Notes: generated by a model not told the origin, from the sequence alone. Counted from the whole stretch's first letter, positions 39,245 to 56,925 are shown. The stretch: 63,425 bases of DNA, filler included, from Reclinomonas americana ATCC 50394 (GCA_048213135.1; 17 parts of 17 records of this genome joined end to end with filler, not necessarily neighbours in it); one strand, 5' to 3'. A program made the numbers and translations.

Positions 39245-42200
39245 GCTGTGCAGCGTGGAGATGTTCTCCTCAATCAGCCACTCCACTAGTTCGTCGACAC
39301 TGTCTCTGTTCCAGTGCTTGTTCCGGTCACACAGAGCTGATGTACATGTACAAGACAAAAAGTGAGCAATCTGTTGCATGGGAGTGGCTTTGTGATGCCG
39401 CAGCGTAGCCAAACGCAACTGCCCAGCCAGCCGCCGACATCGCTCTCGGGTGCGAAAACGTCGACGTCGTCCAGGTTAGGCACCGACAAAGGAGTTGTGG
39501 TGAACTTGACTGGCACATACGACTGCACTGGTGCGGCAAAAGGCCGTACGTTCCACGCACCACCGGCGCCAACGTTGGGCTGGTGCGGAACTGACATGTA
39601 TGGCACGGGCAATGCACAATCCTCCATGGGTACGTCGAACACTTGATCCATCGCCGCATCGTAGCCGCACTCGCGCACCAGGTGATTCACCAGAGGTCGG
39701 AAGTCGCTCGTCCGCTCAGCAGTGTCCACCAACTCGTCGGGCACGTCGAAGCCGTTCTCCTTCACAAACTCCACCACCGACTCCAGCTCCTCAAACTCGC
39801 CGTGAAGCAACTTGACCGCTGCGGCGCGGCGACGACTGACGCAGTAGCCGGCCGCCAACTCCAATGCACCGAGCAGAGCCTCGAGTACGAGCACCTCGCT
39901 TCCAAGGTCGGGATACGCGTTTGGACCGCTGTAGTTGACAACTGGGTACACACAGCCAAGAGGAATGCTGGCACGCGCGGCAATGTCCTCCATCGCCTTG
40001 GCGACAGTATCGCTGTCCAGAGCCAGGATGGCGTTGTGGCCTCCCAGGCGCGGGTCAATGATGTCGAGCTTACTCAGCAGAACGACAAACTGCAAGTCTG
40101 TGTATAACAGAAGGTGAGCATGCGCAAGGAACAGATGAAAAATCGTGAATGTGCGGACCGTGGCGGGTGAGCAGCGCCAGCATCTCCTTCAGCTCAGCAA
40201 TCTTGATGTCGTTGTCCAGCGCGTCCGCCTCAAAGACGACCATGGCCGAGTGCATGTGCGTTGCGAGATCGCCATGATCGACCTCGACTGGCTCTACATG
40301 CGCATGACGGCTACTTCCACCACTTGCAAGTGCTGCCGACCTGCTGTGGCGACAGTCGAAGCCCTCTGGGAGAGTGCCGTTGACAAGGTTTTCGGTTACT
40401 TCCTTGGTGTACATCCTGGCGTCGTAGCCCTGCAATCATTGTAATGAATCAGTCAGAATGCACCGACACCACATAGTATGCCACAAAAAGAAAACGCACC
40501 CATACATCGTGAAGGAACACCCAGTCGTCAACCACCGGATAGTCGGTGTTGGTGAACGTGACAGTGCCGTTTTGCTTGCGCGTCGTCGCGGCCGCCACGA
40601 ATTTGCCCTTCATGGCACTCATCGTGGTGATGACGGTGGATGACTTCCCCGCACCCATGTTTCCGAAAAGGAGCACATTGTACGGCACAATGGCGTGGCG
40701 ATCTTGGGCGAAGTTGTTAACTCGCGTCATCAAGTGATGCCTGTAGTCCGGCAAGTCGTCAGCGCGCAGGCGAGGCCCTGTACAGTATATTCATCAGCTC
40801 AGAGTTGCAAAAGTCAACCAAGTGGACTTGTGCAGCGCACGCAACTTGACAGCGTGCGGTACTCGGTCACTGGTGACCACGGCGACTTGGAGCCGTCCTC
40901 AAAGACGGCGCATGCACGCAACACCAGCAGCTCGTCGGGTTCGAGGTACTCAATGTGCATCTCATTGACATTGGCTTCCACGCTACCAAATTCCACCCAT
41001 TTGGCTTTTCACACAGTTAGCCGACAGCAAGAGGCGGAGAATCACTTCCGTAGAGACGCAACGTTCTCCCACACGGGCCTGAGAACCGGAAGCGTCATCT
41101 GAAGAGAGAATTCCCGTCAGTATCTCGCAAACGCAAGAGAGCGTCCAACTCTCTTGGAAACACTCACCGACGGCAGCTGGTGCCGATGCCACCTCCATCA
41201 GACTTCCGCGAATGCGACGCTGCAGCTCAAACGACACCACATCTCCAGCCGCACTTTGATCGGAGCTCATCTTGAAGCGCAGCTCCAGCTTGGACGAGGT
41301 GCGATTGTGTGCCTCGATCTGCGGCACAGGGCGAATGACGGTGGAGGTCTTGCCAAAGAGAAACTCGATATCCTCGAGCTGCTGTGCGCGGAACAAGCAG
41401 TTGGCGGAGACCACTGGACGCAGCGTTTCCTCCACTGCGGCACTGCGGCATGCATCAGCACCGAGGACAAAGGCAACAGTCGTCACTCGGGCAGAGTGCA
41501 GCTTCGCAGCGGCACGCTCAGCTGCCTGCGCGTCTTCTATGTCACCTGTTCATGCCAAAGCGATGAGATGCAAGCAGCACAGTCACCACGCAGGGAAAAG
41601 GAGGACATGCGTTGTGCAGCGTACCATTGACCACCAGCACAACAAATTTGCGGCGACCAGGCTCTTGGCCCAACATGTGATTGTGGCTGACGTCAATGGC
41701 CTTGTGGATGTGCGTGGAGGTGGCTGCCGGGTTCTTCTCCATGGCTGTGGATTGCATGGTGTGAGACACAGCAAGATGAAGAAGAGGTCCTTTGCTGATC
41801 TTGACGCAACTGGCAGCAAGCTCGAGGTGATACCGTGAGTTCGAGGTCAGCTCGGTCTCCACCCGAGCGCCGTCCAGGAACTCGTTGCAGTAGTACACGA
41901 CAGCAAGCGCAGTGCCGGCGCGATTCGATTCATTGAGATTGAGGCATGTGGCGAGGACGCGGTACAAGTGCTGCGTCAGCTTGAGGTTGGTGTCGGCGCC
42001 GCACGGGAAGGCCTGGTGAGTGGAGGTGCAGTGGTGAGCAAGCAGCAGACAACAAATAGAGAGACGGCATGAAGAGGCGCGCGCGAGAGAGAAAGAGGGA
42101 TGTCCACAAAGCAACAGTAGAGAGAGAGAGAGAGAGAAGTGACTCCTCACTTGCGGCGATGCAGTGTTGGGCAAGTAGAACACAAGCAGATGGTACTCGC

Positions 42201-42783: not shown

Positions 42784-45690
42784 ATGGATCCAGAGACCGA
42801 CGATGAACATGAACGCCTACAGAGCATTGTGTTCCCCCCACTCAGCGAGAGCACCAACATCGTCCTTGTTGCGTTCTACTTCCCAGTGCACTCTCTCTTC
42901 CGTGTGATTGCATTCTCGCTCGCTGGCCTTTGACGATATCCCTGTGTGTACTCCTTGTTGCAGTGTTTACCAATGGCATGGGAGGTGCCGACCGTCAAGA
43001 GAATTGTCCGCATGCTTTTGAGTCTCTCGCGTCTGGATCGCGCCGATGAGCGCTCTGTCAGCTTCTCGGTGGTGCTGTACGGCCAGCACACGCCGGCGGC
43101 GATCTTCCAAGTGCTCACCAACGACCGCCAGCCCCTGTTTGACTTTGCGGCGCGCGCCGAGGACTATACCGAAGCGCCTCTGGATGTGGATGCGGAGGGC
43201 GACGCGGCTGTGGCGGCCACCCAGAATTCCGGTGTAGCCAGCGCTATCAAGATCGCTGCGCAACACCTGGACACGTACGTGCGACAGAACTCCAAGCGTC
43301 TTGTGGTGTTGGTGACTGTAGGTTGGTGTCCACTTGCTTGCGCAGCTGCTTTGTCGTCGTTGTTTTCCTCGATCTGACAACAAGTACTTCACTTGCAGGC
43401 GCGCTGCCATTCCCGCAGATTGCCAAGATGGAGGCCAAGTGCTCGCTGCACGACGCCAAGATCCCGACCGTGGTGTTCGCCCTGCGCGCCCCTCGCGACG
43501 ACGCTGCGCGTGAGGACATCAAGCTGCTCGGCACCTCGCAGCGCAACACATTCTTTGTCAACTCGCGAGAGCAGGTCGAGAAGTTGTTTGCCCCGGCGTC
43601 GGTCACCAGCAATTCATACATACGGTGTGTTTGTGCGCTCTCATGTCGCGTGCAGTTGTCGTGTAACTCGCTCATAGTCCACTTCACAGCCCCTCGGTGA
43701 CCACTGGAAAACGCACATCGTCCGAGCTGATGCTCAAGTTCTCGATGCCGAGCGGGTCGCTGCTGGACTTCAACCTCGACAGGATCCACATTGAGCGCAA
43801 AGTGCGAAACCGCTGGCCCGACGGCAAAATGCGAGGTATCGTGTGGCTGCGTTCTTCAGCAATTGCAAAAACCTAGGCCTCTTCGTGCAGTCACACTCAC
43901 ATGTCGTGCACGGCTTCTGCTACAGTGCATTGGAAGATTGTGGGTGAAGCCGACGTGAGCATCAACGAGTACTGGGTGAGCGGGCTGCCTGCCGATGAAC
44001 TGGTGACGCTGCGCGTGCAAGGCATTCGTGCAGATAACACGCGGACTCCGTTCTCGGACGAGACCGATTTCTTCACTCTCCGTGGTGCGTTTCACACTCA
44101 CCCTTTATCACCGGTGTGCTCGTCGCTCACCTGTGTATACCGCAGCACCTCGCATCTATCAAGACAACTTGGAGGAGGCACGCAAAAACACTCTGCAGAC
44201 CATCAACGAGTACCAGCGCAACTGCCCCGCTGAAGTGGGTGCCTACAACATTCTGTTTGTCGGTCTCAGAGTTGCGTTGTGCGCCTGCGACCACCCACCA
44301 CACGACGCTCGTCGTTGCTGACTCTTCCATGTGTTGGTGTGATAGAATGGTGCAAAGAGTGCCACCATCAACACCATGGCCAGCGCACTGAACAACCGCT
44401 TCTTCTCGGTCGCACCGAGCTGCCCTTCAGATGATGGTGTGACGCAGAAGAAGGTCACCTACGCCGTGGCGGACCATCTGAACCTGATTGACTGCTGGGT
44501 GAGTGTTGAGACCTGTCATGCGCGACCCACTGCTTCGCTATTCACGACGCTCACTGTGCACATATCAGGGCTACCTCTCGAACGCTATCCGTCAGCCCGG
44601 CAACGCGGAAGGCGTCTACCGCCCACCAGCAGAGCCTACAAAAACCAACTTCTCGAGGGACGTGACAAAGGCCCTGGTGGATGGCACCCTGCCGGACGAC
44701 TTTCGATTCAACGATGATCTGAAGCGCGTCGAGAGGAAGGGCGGCTTGTGGAGGGGCGGTATAGTCCGCCGTGTGCATGGCGTCATTCTGTGCTGCCACG
44801 TGAACATGCTGGGCCACGAGGACAAGATGTTGGCGTTGCGCGAGTTGGGCCAGCTTCTCAGCGAACAGGGCCTGCAGCCGATGGTGGTTCTGGCCGGCAT
44901 GGACTTGGTCGACCCGCGTCTGCGACACAAGAACGCCATTCGCGCTCTCGAGAGTGACTTGGTGGACAAGACGCTGGAACGCTTTGCCGAACAGAGCGGT
45001 ATCCGGCCATCAACTCTCTTCCCAACTGTATCGTACACTGGGCCGAACTCGTACCGCGATGAGGGAGCGGAGGTGCTTGTGCTGCTGCCGCTGATGCACG
45101 CATTGTCTGCTGCAGAGGATTTTGTTAAGCACCTGATTCGCAAAGCCGGCGGCAGCATGACAGGCTGCAGCGCTCGCCCACAGCGACCTTCGTGGACAGC
45201 CAGTAGTCCCGGCGCCAACTCTGACGATGACTCGGATTCGGAGGCGTCGCCGCCGAGAGCGCGAGTGAACATGGCCGCAGCGCCCCTCAGCGCTCGCGGT
45301 GGTCGTCGCCAGTCGGAACAGGCGCCGCTGTCTGCAGCAGTGTTCGCGCAGCAGCCGTCTGTACCGGTATTTGCGCAGCCGCCGGTGCCCGCACCAGCGA
45401 TCGCCAGTCCGTTTGGTGGTGCGGGTGCTGCCGGCGTGGCTGGTGCTTGGGCACGCCCGACCTTTGACTTCGCATCACCTGTGCATGCGTCGCACTCGAG
45501 CGCCAACAGCAGGGTGACGCTACCGCAAAGCGATGTGGCTTCGGTGACGTTACACTCGCCGACCACTCCGGTGAACGCTTCGCGATCCGGTAGCTCCTGT
45601 CTCCTGGTCGGCTCCTTGGTAGCTACTTCGGCTCCGTCTGGTCGCACACCGGCCGGCGACGTTCGACCTAGATCGCGAATTCGTGTTTAG
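42784..45690 (+). CDS. vWA - FN3 - IFI44-like GTPase paralogue with altered Walker A
   Basis: NIVL|CLP..FSVVLYG..RLVVLVTVG (vWA); VSGLPADELVTLRVQGI..RTPFS (FN3); NILFVGLR|NGAKSATINTM, LIDCW|G, LVDGTLPDDFRF, VHGVILCC, PMVVLAGMDLVD, LFPTVSYT..EVLVLLPLMHALSAAEDF; then a Pro/Ala/Ser-rich tail. The start could extend to ATG 42623. Confidence 0.8.
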
Positions 45691-46350
45691 TATCACGACT
45701 CGGCCTGAATGTACTCGATAATTCTGTCACCACCTGTTTGCTTCAGTTAGCTGCGACTTCAGTGCACAGTGACAAAAGCCCGCGACGTCGGTGATCTAGT
45801 TGTCACGTAGCAACGGAAATTTTATCATTGAATGACTGACAGTCAGAAACATTCCGACAAAAAAGGAAAGCAAAAAAGGCGGGAAATCAAGTCAGCAACG
45901 GTTGTCAACTGTGTGGCAACGACAGGGGAGGGGGTGCAAGGGCAACAACAAAGCACAACAGAGGCAAATGGGGAGCCCAGAGAAACAACTGAATAGGGAG
46001 AGAGAGAGGGAGGAAAAGTAGAGAGAGATATGCATGCACCCCCTCCCCCCACCCACCCCCTACTGATTCCCAAGCTCACCTTTCACCTGCAAGTGCACGT
46101 GCCGAGAAAACGTATGCGAGGTGACACAAATGAAGGCATACCACTTACATGAGTCCACAGCCAGCAGGCAAATATATATTGTACGTGAATAAACACTCGA
46201 CGTAACTATTTCTCCTGTTGACGATGAGCAAGAGCAACAAAGCAGCGACANNNNNNNNNNNNNNNNNNNNNNNNNNNNNNNNNNNNNNNNNNNNTTAATT
46301 AATTAANNNNNNNNNNNNNNNNNNNNNNNNNNNNNNNNNNNNNNNNNNNN

Positions 46351-47411: not shown

Positions 47412-47753
47412 GATTCTTTTCCGCACTCTGTTTCGTGGAGTGGGGAGTGAGCTAGCAAACGACAGAAATAAGGGAGAAGGAGAGAGACAGAGCGCGGAGA
47501 AACATAGAGAAAAAGTAATGTGGAGAAGCTGACACAGACAATGACAGAAACACAAAGAGCGACAGAGAGAGAGAGGGAGAGAGAGACGAACACACATAAA
47601 GAGCAAGAGAGCAACAGAATGAGTGTGTGTGTGTGTGAGACCAGTCATGTGACNNNNNNNNNNNNNNNNNNNNNNNNNNNNNNNNNNNNNNNNNNNNTTA
47701 ATTAATTAANNNNNNNNNNNNNNNNNNNNNNNNNNNNNNNNNNNNNNNNNNNN

Positions 47754-48806
47754 CACGAGCGGTGCCAGCTTGCCTTATTGCCGATGCCAAAATCGCTGGT
47801 AAAGAGCAGGCCAAACTTGCAAAACACCAGCGCGCTGCAGCAGAGCTCCCAGATGCCACTCTTCGTCAGCAGCGCGTTAATGGCCGCCACACCGCCAAGC
47901 GCCACACCAACTCCGTCCAACCCGTAGAAGATGATCGAGTACTGCGGCTCATCGGCCACCGTCTACACACAGTAGAGGTCGGTGGCCAGCAGCAACAAGG
48001 CACAACACGTGAAACGAACGAACGAACCAGCGCCAGTGTGCCCACCACCATCATGATGGTGCCGACAATCGAGTTAATGACCCACGGCCGGTGCAGCGAC
48101 GAGATGCCGAGACAGCACAGACAGCTGACACGCGAGCGCGGTCGGTTGTGCGTGATCAGTGCCGCTCCAACGTACCCAAACAGAAAGTACTGCCACGACA
48201 CAATAAGCACTGAGGAAACACGGCCTTCAGCTTTTTCTCCACGAGTCTCACATCAGCAGCATCCAAGGCAGAGAAGGCCGGGTAACCATGGTCACTGATG
48301 ATCCTGTGCATCAAGTATAAGAGACACGCGCGCAGTGAGACAGAGAAAGAGTCTGAAAATCCGACCTTCCGAACGCCATCAGCACGAGGATCACGGCCGA
48401 TAGAACAAGAAACGTCATGTGCTCTGTGGACAGAGAGAGAGCGAGTGAGAAAAGAGCATGCACCTCACCACCTCAAGCATCGCACACCAGTGCGCAGAGG
48501 TATCCTGCGTCCTTTGGTCACATGTCGTCGTTGCCACAATGCCTGCATGCGACCAGTCATCAATGCCCAATCTTCCACGCACACACACAGCGTATACTGC
48601 CGCACCAGAACGCCCATGAGCAACGTCTCCGCGAGCAACCCCGAGCCAGAGATGACGCCAGCCAAGGTATGCGAGAACGGAGATTTCTTTATGACAACGT
48701 CGAGCATGAGAAGTTGCATTGTGAAAGGAGGAGGAACGCAGAGGAGGCTTACCACTACAATAGTAAGCGCATTCACACACCACCCATCGTCTCCACTGAG
48801 TGCCAT
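47754..48806 (-). CDS. Multi-pass membrane protein, possibly TRIC/UPF0126-like (3' end in gap)
   Basis: Hydrophobic exons: KSPFSHTLAGVISGSGLLAETLLMG, SSVLIVSWQYFLFGYVGAALI, WVINSIVGTIMMVVGTL, IIFYGLDGVGVALGGVAAINALL. The family guess rests on a weak motif resemblance only. Confidence 0.55.
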
Positions 48807-48863
48807 TATGCGCAGTCTTCGCGGGTCCTGTGTGACACACTCTCTGCATATTGTCAACAGTCC

Positions 48864-51300
48864 ATGCGCAGACTGCTGCTTCTGTTACTGCTTCTGGCAG
48901 TCACAGTACGCGCACAAGGTCCCTTGCCTCCACCGCATACCAACCTTCCACCACGCCACTCACTCTTCCATTTGCAGAGTTGCTCACAGATCAACACTTG
49001 CACACTCACACTGACTGGTCGTCGTCGTCGTCGTCCCCGCGTGTGCGCACTGGTGACTTGTGGTTGCTCCGTGAACGCATCCCCGACGCGTCTGGAGTGG
49101 AAGCATTCCTCTTTGATGCGGATGAGACGCACAAGTCATTCGCGCTCTCGTTGAATGGCTTTGATTGGCTGCAGGATGCTGGTACGAGTGTCTCTCTGCT
49201 GGTGCTGCTGTTACATAACGCATGTTGAGAGCTTCTCTCGTGTGTCTACAGTGGCAGAGGCTGTGGAGAAAGAGAAGCTGGGTCTCGGAGCGTTGCATAT
49301 GACGGTGTATGTCATGCGGAAAAAGTTTGAAGATGAAGGCGTGATGCCCGAGTTGTCGTCGATGAAGGTGCGTGTGACGACTGAGATGCTTTGTTGCGCC
49401 TTGTTGCGTGACTGGGAGACAGACGGCTGCACCGGGAGTTCGTACTGCGGGCAAGCGACCGGTGGTGCCGAGGCGCACGGTGGGACTGTTTGTGGATGGT
49501 CGCGTGCATACGTTGTTGGTGGAGGCTGATGGCTCGGATGTGGAGGCTGCTGGTGCGTGCGCGCAAGGGTGAAGATGCCTTTTTTCGTGTGACTGATAGC
49601 CTCACGTTGTCGTCGGCCAGTGGCCAAGTTCGTGTCGACCAGGACGATTGAGAGAGAATTCGTGCCGGCAATGGTGCACGCTGCGCGTATGCAGCTGGAG
49701 GCACACGATCCGGAGGTACGTCACTCTCCCTTGGGCGTTCCCACCCTCTCGTTGCGCTGTCTCACACGTTCGTACACCACAGCCGACGCAGTTGCCGTAC
49801 AGCATGGCCCGCATGCAGTACCTCCGTAAGGGCTTTGTGGTGCCTCTCACCGAGCCCGCCATTGTCGAGGAGAATCCGGTGGTGGTCATGGTGGATGCAC
49901 TGCGTAACCACGTGGGCGTGCTTGGTGCGTGGTCACCCTGCCTTCCCTCCCGTTCCCTCCACTTCCCTCCCCTTCCCTCCCCTTTCCCCCCTTTCCCCCC
50001 TTTCCCCCCTTTCCCTCCCCTTTCCCTCCCCTTTCCCTCCCCTTTCCCTCCCCTTTCCCTCCCCTTCCCTCATCCACTGCTTTGCCTGACACTTGATGGC
50101 AGCCGACGACCCGCGAAAGCCTTCGTACCGCTGCTCCTTCATTCAGCATCCGTTCCCCCAGAGGAAGAAATGTGCGCCGTTGATTGCCGCTGCACGCAAG
50201 TGGGTAGAGAACAATGTGGAGGTGCGTCTCCACATCACTTCTTTCCTCGCCTCAGTTCACTCCTCTCATCGCCTGTGATGCAGCGTGTCGCCACACACTT
50301 CCTGCCCCCGCCGCCACCCACATCGGAACCACCACCGCTGCCGCCACCGCCACCGCGCAGTCCCTACTTTATCGGTTCCGACACCATGTCGGGCGCCGAA
50401 CTTGCCGCGCTTTCCGCCCGCGTGCGCAGCGTCGGCCGTGTGCGCCCGTGGGAGTGCTCGTACCGCAACGGACTGAAGGAGAGCACCGGTCGCAACGAGC
50501 CGTCGGCTCCCGAAGACAACCTCGCCAGCTCCTTGTTTGTCAAGTCGCAGCCGCGACCCGTGGTTGGCCAACTGGCCACGATCGTGCTCGGCGTGTTCTC
50601 CATGGACGACAAGGAGGCGCAGCGTGACGACTTGCGCGAGACGTGGATGCGATACCCCAATGTGTATCACCGCACGCGCAACCCCGAGGGCTCGGTGCAG
50701 GTGGTGTTCGTGTTGGGTCGGCCGCGCAACGCGGAGCTGGCCAGCCGGTTGCGTGCCGAGCAGGAGAAACACGGCGACCTGTTCTTCTTGGACATTCGGG
50801 AGAACGTGAACGCCGGCAAGATGCACGACTGGCTGTCGTCGGCCGCAGATCACTTCCGCGGCACGAACGTGCGCTACGTGGGCAAGTGCGACCACGATGC
50901 CTTTGTGCGCACCGTACAGCTGGAGCGCGAGCTGTCCAAGCTGCCGCGTGAGCGGCTGTACTGGGGTGCCTCGCTCGTCGGCTATCGGGACGGCGTGGCG
51001 CTGGACTACATCATCTCCTTCACCAACCTGCTGTCGTGGGATCTGGTGGAGTGGCTGCGCCGTGCACCGCTGGGCAGCCTCGAGCACCTCGGCAACGACG
51101 ACTGCGCCACGGGTTCATGGTTCGCCATGGAGAACATGCCGGTGCACATGGTGGGCGACAGCCGCTTCCACGACTACCTCGGCAAGCTGCTGGCCATCAT
51201 TCCCGAACCGCTCAGCGAGCAGACAATCGCCGTGCACCGCGTTGACAGCCGCGACTTGCTGGATCTTCTCATGCGCCAGTACCCGTCAGAAGACGAATAA
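48864..51300 (+). CDS. GT31 (Galactosyl_T) glycosyltransferase, copy 1
   Basis: Signal peptide MRRLLLLLLLLAVTVRAQ; multi-exon N-terminal domain; Pro linker; IVLGVFS..RDDLRETW..VVFVLGRP..LRAEQEKHGDLFFLDIRENVNAGK..YVGKCDHDAFV..LSWDLVEW..DDCATGSW. Confidence 0.88.
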
Positions 51301-51409
51301 TATGCGTCCTATGGTGGTGGAATACAGCGGCATGCATGACGATCCTCCGATATCGATTACATGAACGTTCGCGACCCCGTCCTCTTCATCAACCGACTCG
51401 CTGGCATCC

Positions 51410-53823
51410 ATGCCACGCACACAGTCAATGCCGCTTCTGCTGCTGCTGCTACTGATCACCGCAGTGTGCGCACACGATGGTACGATGCACACACGCACAG
51501 CAAACACAGTGTTCGCGCGCTTTCTTACACATGCTCTCTCTCTCACACACACACACAGCGACTCACACTCACGAGAACGATCACACACCACCGCGCCCAC
51601 CATCGCCATCATGGACACTGTCAACAGGGTCATCGTCATCGGCGAGACAACGTGTGGGCGACATGTGGTTGCTGCGTGAGAAGGGATCGCACATTCCGGG
51701 CTTCACTCTGACTGTGTACGATGCGGACGAGAAGTTCAAGACCATTCCCATTCCCTACGCTGGCTTTGTGTGGTTCGAGGACGCTGGTGAGGGAGCGAGT
51801 GAGTGAGAGAGAAAGAGAGATCGCGCGAAACAGCTTACGATTCCTCTGGATGGCATGCAGTGGTGGATGCGATCACCAAGGCAAATGCAGGCTTCAATGC
51901 TGCCCATGCGGGACTGCTGGTGTGTCGGCAGCTCACTACGCGAGACGGCGTGTGGCCGGAGCCTGCGCAGCTCAATGTTGCGTGCACACGTGCTTGTTTT
52001 CGTCCGCTGTGTTGTCTGTTGACTTTTGTTGTGCAGGCGGTGGCACCGGGAGTTCGCACCTCGGGGAAGCGTCCGGCTGTACCGCGGAGGAGAGTGGGTC
52101 TCTTTGTGGACGGCCATGTGCGCATCTTGTCGGTGCGAGTGGACGGTCGTGATGTGAACGAAGTCGGTATGTATGTCTCTCTGTTGTTTTCCTCTCTTGT
52201 CTCTTCCGCTCATTCCTGTGGACGACAGTGTCGTCGTTTGCGTCGGCGAATGCAATCGAGTCGGTGTTTGTGCCTGCCATGGCACTCGCAGTGCATCGTC
52301 AGCTGCAGACAAACGCCGAAGAGGTTTGTTTGTTGCACGCCATCGGTTTTGTCATTAGGGAGAATACTGTCGTCTCACCTCGCTGTGCGTGTTGCAGCCC
52401 CTGGATGTGCCTATCGGCATATCCCGCCTCCAGCACCTCCGCAAGGGCTTCGTGGTGCCACTCACGGAGCCCGAGGAGGCCGTTCAGCATCCGGTGGTGG
52501 TGATGGTCGGCGCCTTTCACCACGATGTGAACACGCTTGGTGCGTCCACTTGTCTCCTGTTTGGCATCCCTCTCCCTCACACTCTGTCGTGTGTTTGTTT
52601 GCAGCCGACGACCCACTGCAGCCTTCGTTTCGTTGCACGTTCATCCAACACCCTTTTCAAGAGAGGAGCAGATGCGCACCACTCATCGCTGCAGCGCGCA
52701 CGTGGATCGCGGCGAATGCAGAGGTTTGCGCTCATATCCTCCCTCTTCATCCCTCTCACTCACTCATGGCTCACCGTTCATGACTCCGCAGCGGGTCGCC
52801 ATTCACTTTCAGCCTCCACCACCACCCACCCTGGAGCCGCCACTATTGCCACCACCGCCACCACGCAGTCCTTACTTTGTTGGCTCGGACACCATGACTG
52901 GCGCCCAGCTGCTGGCACTTGCCACCAGCGGCCACCCAAACGTGGGTCGCATACGACCGTGGCGGTGCTCGTTCCAGACCTTTGATGGCTTCACGGGGCA
53001 TGCTGAGCGAACCCGCTACACCGTGTCGGATCCCGAAGACAACGTCTTCAGTTCCATGTTTGTCAAGTCGCAACCACGACCCGTGGTTGGGCGGATGGCC
53101 ACCATTGTGTTGGGGGTGTTCTCCATGGATGAACGGGAGGCGCAGCGTGACGACGTGCGCCAGACGTGGATGCGATACCCCAACGTGTATCACCGCACTC
53201 GCAACCCGAGTGGCTCGGTGCAAGTGGTATTCGTGTTGGGTAGACCGCGCAACGTGACTGTGGCACGACGGTTACGTGCGGAGCAAGAGAGACACGGCGA
53301 TCTGTTCTTTGTGGACATTCTCGAAAACCTCAACTCGGGCAAGATGCACGACTTTCTCGTGGCGGCAGCGGATCACTTTCGCGGCACCAACGTGCGCTAC
53401 GTGGGCAAGGTTGACCATGATGCCTTTGTGCGCACCGTGCAGCTGGAGCGTGAGCTGTCCAAGCTGCCACGCGAAAGACTCTACTGGGGACCGGGACTGG
53501 TGGCGTACCGTGACGGAGTGGCTCTGGACTACACAGTGAGCTTCATCAACCTGCTGTCGTGGGATCTGGTGGAGTGGGTGCGACAGGCACCGTTGGGCAG
53601 CCTGGAGCACTTGGGACTCGACGACTGCACACTGGGTTCGTGGTTTGCCACCGAAAATGTTCCGGTGCACTTTGTGGGCGACAGCCGCTTCCACGATCTG
53701 TTCGGCGCCGCCGACGCCATCATCTCGGAGCGACTGACAGAGGAGAGCATCGCGGTGCACCGAGTGCACACTGGTGAAATGCTGCGACTGTTCATGCGCC
53801 AGTTTCCACCTGACGATGAGTAA
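51410..53823 (+). CDS. GT31 glycosyltransferase, copy 2
   Basis: Same exon structure and motifs as copy 1 (ENLNSGK, YVGKVDHDAFV); stop at 53821-53823. Confidence 0.88.
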
Positions 53824-53876
53824 AATCCATTTTGAGTGAGAGAGCGATTTGGTTGAAAAAAACGAAGAAGACGGAC

Positions 53877-56281
53877 ATGCATATGCGACGAGTGCTCCCA
53901 CTTGTGTTGCTTGTGCTTCTGCTTGTCACTGCTGCCTGTGCACATCAAGGTGGGGTGTTCACACAGTCATACACGGAAGAGCATGCAGGATTCTCACTCT
54001 CACTCTCACGTGCATGCAGCAACTCACACTCGTGAAGAGAGTCGCACATCATCACCACCAGCGCCACCACCTCGACCACCGCCGACATGGACATTGTCGA
54101 CGCCGGCACCAGAGGGCGACACGTGGCTGCCTTCCGAGTCAATAGGCTTCAATCTCATTGTGCACGACACGGACGAGGAGGAGCACACGATCTTCATCCC
54201 ATACGCTGGCTTCACGTGGTTCGAGGACGCAGGTGCGACATGGGGGAGTGGAAGTGAGGGGGCGGGGGAGTGACTTGACATGCTTTTTGTTTTTGGTGTC
54301 TGTTTTGATATCAAGTGCGCTTGCACACACAACAAAACAGTGTTGGATGCTGTCAGCAAGGCCAAGATGGGATTCGGCGCCGCTCAGCAGGGACTGGGAT
54401 TGTGTCGGCGTCTCACTGCAGAGGAAGGCTCGATGCCGAAGCCTTCACAACTTGGTGTTGCGTGCCTGTGATGCGCGCGTGGCGTGAATGCTGCTGTTGA
54501 CTTTGTTGTGCGCAGGCGGTGGCACCGGGAGTTCGTTCCTCGGGGAAACGTCCGGCTGTGCCGCTGCGCAGAGTGGGTCTCTTTGTGGACGGCCGTGTGC
54601 GCGTCTTGTCGGTGCGAGTGGACGGTCGTGATGTGAACGAAGTCGGTGCGTGCGTTTGTGTGTTGTCCTCTCTTTTGTTCTCCTCCTCACTCGCTGTGTG
54701 TTGACGACAGTGTCGTCGTTTGTGTCGGCGAATGCAATCGAGTCGGTGTTTGTGCCGGCCATGGCAATGGCAGTGCACCACCAGCTGCAGACGAACGCCG
54801 AAGAGGTTTGCATTTGTCGTCGTTCACTGTTGGCATCGCCTTGCTGAACGTGCGTTTGCGTTTAGCCACTGGAGACACCGTACAGCATGGCCCGCATGCA
54901 GTACCTCCGCAAGGGCTTCGTGGTGCCTCTCACCGAGCCCGAGTTGGCCGTTCAGCATCCGGTGGTGGTGATGGTCGGCGCCTACCACCACCATGTGGAC
55001 TTGCTTGGTACGCGTCCACTCGACTCTCTCATCCCCATTCTCTCCCTCCTCACACTCTTGCCTGTGCTTGTTGGCAGCCGACGACCCGCTGCAGCCTTCA
55101 TTCCGCTGCTCACTCATTGGGCGCCCCTTCCCGGAGCGGAAACGATGTGCGCCGTTGATTGCCGCCGCACGCAAGTGGATCGAGAACAATGTGGAGGTAC
55201 GTGAGCCGTTCCCTCAGCTCCCTCCTCCTTCCCTTCTCACACGTTGACAATGGCGCTGCAGCACGTCTTCACGCACTTCCTGCCTCCACCGCCACCCACA
55301 CTTGAGCCACCACCACTGCCGCCACCACCACCACGCAGTCCCTACTTTGTCGGCTCGGACACTATGACTGGCGCCCAACTGCTGGCGCTCGCCGACAGCG
55401 GCCACCCGAACGTGGGTCGCGTACGACCGTGGGTGTGCTCGTACCGCACCATCGATGGTTTCACCGTGCATCGCTACACTGGACTGGCCCCCCAAGACAA
55501 CGTCTTCAGCTCCCTGTTTGTCAAGTCACAGCCGCGTCCGGTTGCTGGTCGACTGGCCACCATTGTGTTGGGTGTGTTCTCCATGGATGAGAACGAGGCG
55601 GATCGTGACGATGTGCGCGAGACGTGGATGCGCTACCCCAATGTGTATCACCGCCCGTACAACCCAGAAGGCTCGGTGCAGGTGGTATTCGTGTTGGGCC
55701 GACCTCGCAATGCGGATCTGGCCCGACGGCTGCGTGCCGAGCAGGAGAAACACGGCGACCTGTTCTTCTTGGACATTCTCGAGAACATGAGCTCCGGCAA
55801 GATGCACGACTTCCTCGCCGCGTCGGCCGATCACTTTCGCGGCACGAATGTGCGCTACGTGGGCAAGGCCGATCACGACGCCTTTGTGCGCACCGTGCAG
55901 CTGGAGCGCGAGCTGTCGAAGCTGCCGCGTGAGCGTCTGTACTGGGGGCCAGGATTGGTGGCGTACCGCGACGGAGTGGCTGTGGAGTATGCGGTCAGTT
56001 TTTTGAACCTGCTATCGTGGGACTTGGTGGAGTGGGTGCGCCGTGTGCCGCTGGGCAGCCTGGAGCACCTGGGACTCGACGACTGCACGCTGGGTTCGTG
56101 GTTCGCGATGGAGAATGTGCCGGTGCACTTTGTGGGCGACGCCCGCTTCCACGATCTATTCGGCGCCACCGATGCCCTCGTCGAGGCGCGGCTGACCGAG
56201 AGGAGCCTTGCAGTGCATCGCGTGCGCGGCGGCGACATGCTGCGACTGTTCATGCGCCAGTTTCCGCCGGAGGATGAGTGA
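53877..56281 (+). CDS. GT31 glycosyltransferase, copy 3
   Basis: Same exon structure and motifs (MRRVLPLVLLVLLLVTAACA, ENMSSGK, YVGKADHDAFV); stop at 56279-56281. Confidence 0.88.
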
Positions 56282-56339
56282 GCGGTTGTGTAGTAAACGT
56301 AAGATGTAGATTTATGGTTGCAGTGCCGATGTTCTCCGA

Positions 56340-56430
56340 CAAGCAAGCCCAGCTGCAGTCTTTGTGACCAATTCCAACCATTCTGCAAGAACAACAACTT
56401 TACTAATCCAAACAGCAACACAGCTGCATG

Positions 56431-56462
<32 letters not shown>

Positions 56463-56925
56463 CTTTACTNNNNNNNNNNNNNNNNNNNNNNNNNNNNNNN
56501 NNNNNNNNNNNNNTTAATTAATTAANNNNNNNNNNNNNNNNNNNNNNNNNNNNNNNNNNNNNNNNNNNNAAATCAATGCAAGCAAGTCCGGGAAGGAACT
56601 GAGATGCATTTGAGAGGTTGTTGTTGGTGATGGTGTTGTTGTTGTTGCTCACGGAAGTTGTCACTGCCGTCTGTTGATTCTGGCAACGGCACCGCAATGC
56701 GCCGACCAGATGTAATGGTCGTGGCGAGCGGCACAGCTGCACAGTTTCGACAGCAAGCGATCCGTGTCGTCACTGCTTCGACGCTCCTGAGGTGAACGGC
56801 CATACACCAAGTCGGCCACGTTGTCACCAGTCCGTTTCGGGACGATGCCACCGGAGCCAAACACCAGTGTATAGAAGACAACTGATCATCATCTTGAGTG
56901 AGACCAATTCCGACCGTTCTGGTTA
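56340..56925 (+). repeat. Member of the dispersed intergenic repeat family plus (AAC)n, interrupted by a gap
   Basis: caacaactttactaatccaaacagcaacacagctgcatga (identical to 37948-37987); tgatcatcatcttgagtgag (cf. 37988-38007); gaccaattccaaccattctg and gaccaattccgaccgttctg. Confidence 0.7.

Follow-up and report, generated by a model that had tools for sequence, protein, structure and literature searches.

Few antiviral genes of animals are induced as strongly as IFI44 and IFI44L, and how their products act is still poorly understood. IFI44 has a divergent TLDc domain, according to a review (PMC5614904). A preprint reports that IFI44 and IFI44L restrict respiratory syncytial virus (RSV) and that, among the human proteins, IFI44L has a complete G4 motif and IFI44 an incomplete one (10.1101/2020.02.24.963900). 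In the oyster, IFI44 is regulated after infection with ostreid herpesvirus 1 (OsHV-1), according to PMC4198667. Here we describe two genes, A and B, that lie head to head in a 63,425-nucleotide stretch of DNA from Reclinomonas americana ATCC 50394 (GCA_048213135.1; hereafter ‘the window’). Each is predicted to encode a protein of 790 residues with a G domain related to that of IFI44, preceded by a vWA-like and an FN3-like domain in place of TLDc. The reading that we prefer is that A and B are products of a lineage-specific inverted tandem duplication within a small clade of vWA–FN3–GTPase proteins, and we give this explanation, taken as a whole, a probability of roughly 0.6.

Spliced models for both genes were predicted from open frames, GT..AG boundaries and comparison of A with B, with both strands read. 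Gene A (39286–42494, minus strand) has seven exons (42494–42408, 42012–41625, 41545–41168, 41004–40846, 40777–40500, 40429–40159 and 40097–39286), and gene B (42784–45690, plus strand) has eight (42784–42867, 42964–43321, 43399–43624, 43690–43835, 43926–44084, 44146–44270, 44346–44498 and 44569–45690). The inferred introns are of the GT..AG type in 13 of 13 cases, with lengths of 61–395 nt; the upper limit is set by intron 1 of A (395 nt), and the remaining twelve introns of the two genes measure 61–163 nt. The start codons at 42494 (minus) and 42784 (plus) leave a gap of 289 bp (42495–42783), in agreement with an initial annotation that placed the ATGs of two diverged paralogues about 290 bp apart. 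This spacer contains no significant repeat or palindrome and presumably holds a bidirectional promoter together with both 5′ untranslated regions (UTRs).

In BLASTP, A is 27% identical to the first model of B (786 aa) across 632 aa (E = 1e-57); aligned by MAFFT, A and the final model of B (790 aa) share 28% identity across 735 aligned columns. Five introns match in both column and phase (28/0, 158/1, 288/1, 341/1 and 435/0), which amounts to five of the six introns of A and five of the seven of B. The proposal that the paralogues share their intron positions thus stands for these five and does not extend to all: one intron is peculiar to A and two to B, and one of the latter interrupts the P-loop. 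The domain order of vWA-like, FN3-like and GTPase is common to both proteins. A maximum-likelihood tree of the G domain was computed from 16 rows, comprising A, B and the 14 database homologues (described below) with a cut of at least 200 residues; the tree does not include the short hits P0007, P0010, P0014, P0016 and P0019. It joins A and B as sisters with support of 99/98, and the terminal branch of B (0.92) is shorter than that of A (1.21). The sister placement, with which the shared introns agree, points to a duplication within the lineage of the pair itself.

The N-terminal domain of each predicted protein is vWA-like, spanning residues 12–228 of A (41337–42461, minus strand) and residues 12–221 of B (42817–43619, plus strand). 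When the N-terminal 235 columns of the A/B alignment are compared by hhalign with the vWA alignment of their relatives, the whole-length comparison returns a probability of 94.0 in global mode (E = 2.5e-8) and 86.9 in local mode (E = 4.2e-6), against 0.1 for a reversed control. A hidden Markov model (HMM) built from the N-terminal regions of four relatives, three with a Pfam VWA match plus P0003, scores 17.1 bits for A and 8.9 bits for B in hmmsearch, where the top of 1000 shuffles reaches 5.1. The metal ion-dependent adhesion site (MIDAS) of such domains carries the motif DxSxS...T...D, which neither A nor B matches. Where P0001 reads DESSS and P0002 reads DSSGS at the DxSxS site, the corresponding residues are FPCGA in A and LPMAW in B. 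The predicted proteins demonstrate that the metal site has been lost in both, and the initial description of a common vWA–FN3–GTPase order with a degenerate MIDAS in each paralogue is borne out.

The vWA-like domain is followed by a predicted FN3-like β-sandwich (A: residues 231–337, 40847–41330, minus strand; B: residues 224–324, 43691–44083, plus strand). Comparison of this region of A and B with the equivalent region of the relatives by hhalign gives a probability of 94.9 (E = 4.6e-8), with a reversed control of 0.1. In the relatives themselves the Pfam fn3 matches are sub-threshold, at 24.1 bits for P0006 (cut-off 25) and 14.6 bits for P0003. The label ‘FN3’ for the A/B sandwich is well supported by this homology and by the predicted structure of P0002 discussed below, while falling short of proof. 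No TLDc match (PF07534) was found at E ≤ 1 in the 13 exon translations of the two genes, whose N-terminal regions align with vWA domains. The place of TLDc is taken by a vWA domain that lacks the MIDAS and by an FN3-like sandwich, both of which match the relatives, as had been suggested from the sequence.

A helical linker leads into the G domain, the two together covering residues 338–612 of A (39823–40846, minus strand) and residues 325–608 of B (44084–45141, plus strand). The diagnostic motifs of TRAFAC GTPases are G1 GxxxxGK[ST], G3 DxxG and G4 [NT]KxD. In A, these correspond to GNMGAGKSS (40664–40638), DVWG (split by an intron) and SKLD (40074–40063; the family norm for G4 is TK[LV]D), so that A follows the pattern. 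B follows it in part: its G1 is GLRNGAKSA (44262–44363, split by a private intron), in which the Gly before the Lys is gone, its G3 is DCWG, and its G4 is AGMD (44893–44904). Compared with A and the homologues, B is also longer by approximately 21 residues just behind G3 (marked span residues 419–445, 44572–44652). Each protein ends in a long tail with no Pfam domain, located at 39289–39822 in A (minus strand) and at 45142–45687 in B (plus strand), where it consists of 182 residues of low complexity rich in Ala, Ser and Pro. The N-termini of A and B are not hydrophobic, and no clear membrane segment is seen in either protein; the maximum Kyte–Doolittle value, 1.89, belongs to a conserved helix of the G domain. 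Both are therefore probably cytosolic, that is, intracellular.

The difference between the nucleotide-binding sites is best appreciated against the family. Among 32 columns that are conserved in at least 70% of the 11 homologues with a complete G domain, A retains 26 and B retains 20. The six departures in A are mostly conservative. Five of the 12 in B fall in G1 or G4, where G→N, G→A and S→A alter the P-loop and T→A and K→G alter the (S/T)KxD motif, converting the equivalents of GNMGAGKSS and (S/T)KxD into GLRNGAKSA and AGMD. Lys and Ser of the P-loop, Thr of G2, the DxxG motif and Asp of G4 are all kept. From this pattern of substitutions, the nucleotide pocket of B looks remodelled rather than decayed.

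Relatives of the pair are few. An exhaustive phmmer search was made with residues 418–651 of B, the part of the G domain that follows DxxG, so that the P-loop is absent from the query. It retrieved 19 proteins at E ≤ 1e-3 among 1,835,955,588 representatives, a collection that does not include this genome's own proteins; the best E-value is 2.5e-11 and identity never exceeds 34%. A word-indexed search with the region of B exon 8 found no relatives, the same type of search with P0002 recovered only P0002 itself, and the multiple alignment A1 likewise recovered only P0002. A locus search with a narrower alignment (A3) gave no confirmed relative in metagenome contigs or viral contigs. The 19 hits include three with Pfam VWA (P0001, E = 1e-15; P0002, E = 1e-20; P0006, E = 2e-13), two with Pfam TLD in a TLDc plus GTPase arrangement (P0011 and P0015), four with a C-terminal HTH_17 and five with no family at all.

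In a MAFFT alignment of the full-length proteins, A and B match P0001, P0002, P0003 and P0006 from end to end. At least these four share the vWA–FN3–GTPase design, and P0009, which is cut at its N-terminus, shares what remains of it. The initial annotation had not recognised this architecture from elsewhere; judged from these predicted proteins it is rare and not unique, and its bearers form a small distinct clade. Tails vary across the relatives and include zinc ribbons, KHA-like, HTH_17 and SAM-like domains. We consider it highly probable that A and B belong to this eukaryotic clade and share its design of a vWA domain, an FN3-like sandwich, a helical linker, a G domain and a variable tail; its members are probably cytosolic. 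In the literature that we searched, which was limited, we found no account of an IFI44-type G domain fused to vWA and FN3-like domains, and none of an IFI44 relative in protists. What is new is thus a vWA/FN3-like variant of a known G-domain family, and its anatomy is solid. We also observed a subgroup of vWA-type GTPases (P0004, P0009, P0014 and P0016) in which a Lys/Glu/Ser-rich linker precedes HTH_17, an excisionase/MerR-like domain that is an odd partner for a eukaryote-looking GTPase.

The relationship to IFI44 emerges from the same search. Residues 418–651 of B match the TLD-bearing proteins P0011 and P0015 with library-wide E-values of 8.8e-5 and 3.0e-4, and a local BLASTP of A against P0011 in a small database gives 8.4e-10 over 289 aa. 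In the ESM Atlas, P0011 groups with ‘Interferon-induced protein 44’ clusters at 0.99, and the B fragment matches unnamed chordate G-domain clusters at 0.93 and an ‘Interferon-induced protein 44-like’ cluster at 0.88. These comparisons support homology between the predicted G domains of A and B and those of the TLDc-GTPases (IFI44 type), and with it the earlier suggestion that the GTPase part follows IFI44 and IFI44L. In the 16-row tree, A and B lie among the vWA-type proteins, on the opposite side of a 91/97 split from the TLDc-type group. By this topology, the vWA-type G domains are the sister group of the TLDc/IFI44-type G domains and not members of that group.

Structural comparisons were made with predicted models of two relatives, P0002 and P0005, standing in for A and B. 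The AlphaFold2 model of P0002 (pLDDT 77.8) contains an α/β domain (residues 1–195), a seven-stranded sandwich (202–282), a helical segment and a G domain (325–554). For the N-terminal half of this model, the best Foldseek match is ANTXR2 (E = 1e-13 over 287 columns), which extends across both the vWA domain and the sandwich behind it. With TMt values of 0.75–0.79, vWF A3 and integrin I domains match as well, and a Sec23/24-like ArnAB entry is among the matches. The G-domain model of P0005 (pLDDT 87.8, pTM 0.85) retrieves mitofusin-1, IRGB10, GIMAP2, septins and Toc33 in Foldseek with E-values from 4e-7 to 1e-5. VIA-align ranks Toc33 first (Z = 14.7 over 213 residues, 4.1 Å root-mean-square deviation), with ranks 2–50 close behind at Z = 14.6–11.7 among the first 50 matches. 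A family profile searched against PDB sequences finds septin-2 first (6.1e-7). The initial annotation was to be refuted if another GTPase family supplied the best structural hits. The matches do not discriminate in this respect: Toc33, septins, GIMAP, IRG and mitofusin are about equally distant, with none standing out, and no chain named IFI44 is among the matches of the PDB searches. In addition, phmmer of A exon 5 against the PDB gives only spurious summed hits to designed PPR repeats, and Foldseek of the G-domain model against BFVD gives only generic giant-virus GTPases.

Two regions of the gene models allow alternatives. Near the 3′ end of A, a further GTTGCGTT at 39419–39412 is a candidate donor for an extra intron of 83 nt (39337–39419, minus strand) with a CAG acceptor, downstream of which the frame is open to the contig end. 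A therefore probably has this additional intron and an eighth exon that runs off the contig edge, in which case its 3′ end is incomplete, cut short by the assembly. In the alternative model, exon 7 ends at 39420 and exon 8 occupies 39336–39246 and continues off the contig; this exon (39246–39420 region, minus strand) reads ...DELVEWLIEENISTLH, and the last 40-odd residues of our A model would probably be intron read-through. For B, the first model (786 aa) used an exon 6 donor at 44258, which would delete four residues of the P-loop, and was replaced by one with the donor at 44270 (GTTGCGTT). The latter restores a P-loop of family length, and the P-loop is non-canonical with either donor.

Several sequence features of the locus were recorded alongside these models. 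In the window there are 29 copies of the heptamer GTTGCGT, compared with 9.7 ± 3.0 in shuffles; this heptamer may be a favoured 5′ splice site of the genome. On the contig carrying A and B, it is found at 39413, 40839, 40916, 41056, 41804 and 42401 on the minus strand and at 42646, 42868 and 44271 on the plus strand. Eight of these nine copies lie on the sense strand inside the gene models, and five of the nine coincide with inferred donors. The ninth copy (42646, plus strand), approximately 130 nt upstream of the ATG of B, might mark an intron in the 5′ UTR of that gene. Low-complexity CT/GA-rich tracts, such as (GA)n and C-rich runs, are present at 42090–42400, within intron 1 of A, and at 45990–46060.

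A working model for the two proteins can be framed from their parts. The simplest reading of a MIDAS-less vWA domain with a sandwich domain behind it is a module that binds proteins independently of metal, and the vWA and FN3-like domains of A and B would form such a platform. The G domain may serve as a nucleotide-dependent dimerisation switch, the mode of action of its nearest solved structural relatives (Toc33/34, septins, GIMAPs, IRGs and mitofusin). A, with its competent site, and B, with its altered one, could act together, an asymmetric heterodimer being the simplest arrangement, and they would share the 289-bp promoter region. Because tails vary among the relatives and between A and B, they may be interchangeable parts used for output or targeting. 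Overall, the pair would constitute a nucleotide-gated scaffold of A and B. The partnership itself is a tentative element of this model, and we would sooner doubt than assume it. An ancient two-component form of IFI44 is an improbable elaboration, in which A and B would be an obligate heterodimer, A would hydrolyse GTP, B would regulate or sense with its remodelled pocket, and the modules would capture a pathogen or damage ligand, all outside the interferon system and possibly outside animals; the two genes would then encode a head-to-head pair of sensor and helper. If that were true, human IFI44 (incomplete G4) and IFI44L (complete G4) may act as a similar pair.

Some observations weigh against the duplication-and-clade explanation. 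The splice sites of both genes are predictions from sequence alone, and the exon 6 donor of B was picked because it restores the length of the P-loop, the alternative at 44258 deleting four residues. None of the 13 exon translations contains a match to a VWA, fn3, TLD or GTPase family above the Pfam threshold, and the domains of A and B are therefore assigned through comparison of profiles with those of relatives and not through direct hits. Those Pfam runs used single exons, across three of which the vWA domain is split, and returned only sub-threshold P-loop matches in exon 5 of A (e.g. DUF815, 22.1 bits against a cut-off of 23.8). The link to the IFI44 type is distant, with approximately 23–26% identity and a library-wide E-value of 8.8e-5. 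In addition, deletion of the G1 motif of human IFI44 leaves RSV restriction intact, according to the preprint (10.1101/2020.02.24.963900), so that even the known family may not depend centrally on GTPase chemistry.

The initial annotation had viewed the locus as a candidate immunity module. By analogy with paired receptors, A and B would be a cell-autonomous defence pair that is co-induced on infection, one protein sensing through its vWA/FN3-like module and the other helping or executing. The homology of the G domain to the IFI44 type favours such a role, together with the restriction of RSV by IFI44 and IFI44L and the response of oyster IFI44 to OsHV-1 in the papers cited above, the presence of the immune GTPases IRG and GIMAP among the nearby solved folds, a rare and patchy distribution (19 representatives), the zinc ribbons, HTH_17, KHA-like and SAM-like domains that vary at the C-termini of homologues, and the asymmetry in nucleotide-binding motifs of a head-to-head pair. 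Set against this are the other 16 contigs, where the absence of extra paralogues means that no expansion is visible, and a PADLOC search that returns only generic P-loop matches (E from about 1e-4 to 1e-3). A and B also lie outside the TLDc/IFI44-type clade, so function need not transfer, and Toc33, septins and mitofusin, which are not immune proteins, are equally near. On balance we regard an immune function as unlikely. A scaffold of restricted lineage distribution, acting in trafficking, the cytoskeleton or complex assembly, with a vWA domain used for assembly and two subfunctionalised copies, is a possible if doubtful account. Inside cells, vWA domains typically occur in assembly factors, examples being Sec23/24, Rpn10, Ku and copines, and a Sec23/24-like ArnAB entry is matched by Foldseek; the closest solved sequences and folds are those of septins, Toc33/34, EngB and mitofusin, and both genes maintain long open frames and family-conserved residues. 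Such proteins are far too rare for a conserved housekeeping factor, however, with 19 at E ≤ 1e-3 in 1.84 billion, and their nearest named sequence relatives are of the IFI44 type rather than septins or Toc proteins.

Two further explanations concern the status of B and the identity of the G domain. The loss of five conserved residues from G1 and G4, the approximately 21 extra residues after G3 and the low-complexity Ala/Ser/Pro tail could mean that B is decaying or non-functional and that the pairing is a leftover of duplication without joint function. This is very improbable, given a 790-codon frame that is unbroken across seven introns, all GT..AG, the retention of 20 of the 32 conserved columns (among them DxxG and the P-loop, G2 and G4 residues named above as kept) and a branch shorter than that of A; at 27% identity the duplication is old, and an unconstrained copy would have lost its open frame. 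It is scarcely credible that the G domain belongs to another TRAFAC family and that the TLDc-GTPase hits reflect generic P-loop similarity. The structural neighbours do span many families with tied Z-scores (11.7–14.7 in the first 50 matches), and identity to P0011 and P0015 is no higher than approximately 21–27%. Yet a query that starts after G3, and so has no P-loop, still retrieves the TLDc-GTPases at 8.8e-5 and 3.0e-4, and apart from the generic MMR_HSR1 the 19 hits carry no Pfam of another GTPase family above the curated cut-off, with the exception of the multi-G-domain proteins P0015 and P0017 (GTP_EFTU, ATP_bind_1, Arf, Roc and Gtr1_RagA). Both clades also have in common motifs beyond the nucleotide site, namely an (I/V)H-x-V strand and ‘P-x-x-N/S-Y’ followed by ‘L-x-L-x-A-L’, as well as G4 (T/S)K-x-D.

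The genomic context of A and B is confined to a single contig of approximately 7.0 kb (39246–46250), because the remaining sequence of the window consists of separate contigs across linkers. The window is composed of 17 contigs placed end to end and joined by linkers in which a 12-base TTAATTAATTAA is flanked by N runs on either side; this element has 16 copies in 63 kb, compared with 0 expected (at 6627, 12745, 14119, 16028, 21783, 24229, 28785, 31120, 33479, 35429, 39189, 46295, 47698, 56514, 57665 and 59314). The sequence has a eukaryotic character, with approximately 55% G+C and short spliceosomal introns. Neither Rfam nor a tRNA scan gave a match in the window, and tblastn found no additional copies of A or B on the remaining 16 contigs.

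Other contigs contain recognisable genes. Three long plus-strand open reading frames (ORFs) at 49600–51297, 52531–53820 and 55205–56278 match Pfam Galactosyl_T (E from 1e-9 to 2.5e-11), and the region 49600–56278 (contig 47710–56513) is a tandem array of β-1,3-galactosyltransferase-like genes. A minus-strand ORF at 35514–36812 matches Biopterin_H (E = 3.4e-35), its nearest PDB sequences being 5jk5 (phenylalanine hydroxylase) and animal TPH1. As this match is not continuous, the gene probably contains introns. An ORF of 855 aa at 9841–12405 (minus strand) has no Pfam match. Several early contigs (1–2000, 10001–12000 and others) have a very strong compositional bias between strands, with a GC skew reaching −0.43/+0.37 and an AT skew reaching −0.54/+0.64.

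For proteins whose mechanism is poorly understood, as is that of IFI44 and IFI44L, the clade described here offers ground for comparison. A sister clade with a vWA and FN3-like module instead of TLDc separates the role of the G domain from that of the N-terminal module, and the vWA-type proteins provide simpler systems in which to probe G-domain function. A and B are a natural experiment, with a canonical and a remodelled site side by side, a contrast that mirrors the G4 difference between human IFI44L and IFI44 described in the cited preprint. If the host is a unicellular eukaryote, the IFI44-type GTPases would join the immune-associated families that predate animals. Even if the function turns out to be ordinary, a family for which Pfam has no model gains a correct annotation.

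Comparison with known systems brings out what is particular to this pair. IFI44 and IFI44L resemble A and B in having a homologous G domain with family-specific motifs beyond G1–G4 and in lacking a signal peptide or membrane segment, and the complete and incomplete G4 motifs of human IFI44L and IFI44 parallel the difference between the paralogues A and B, on the evidence of the preprint (10.1101/2020.02.24.963900). Unlike IFI44 and IFI44L, A and B have a MIDAS-less vWA domain and an FN3-like domain at the N-terminus instead of TLDc, extend to approximately 790 aa with long tails, and are encoded by genes in head-to-head arrangement. The nearest relatives, P0001, P0002, P0003, P0006 and P0009 (metagenome or genome predictions; P0002 is from JGI), have the domain order of A and B and belong to their clade, with identities of approximately 21–26% over long BLASTP alignments; their C-terminal domains differ (zinc ribbons, KHA-like or HTH_17), and P0001 and P0002 depart from the A/B pair in combining an intact DxSxS MIDAS with canonical G1 and G4. 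Toc33/34, septins, GIMAP/AIG1, IRG and mitofusin share the G-domain fold of the family, septins being the best sequence-profile match in the PDB, whereas Pfam hits to AIG1 and Septin on the relatives are all below the cut-off and do not establish family-level membership. To our knowledge, none of the Toc33/34, septin, GIMAP, IRG and mitofusin families has a vWA and FN3-like N-terminus. The closest structural counterpart of that module is ANTXR2 (CMG2), which combines a vWA domain with an Ig-like domain. ANTXR proteins are extracellular, MIDAS-dependent receptors; the equivalent module of A and B is probably intracellular, has lost its MIDAS and is fused to a GTPase.

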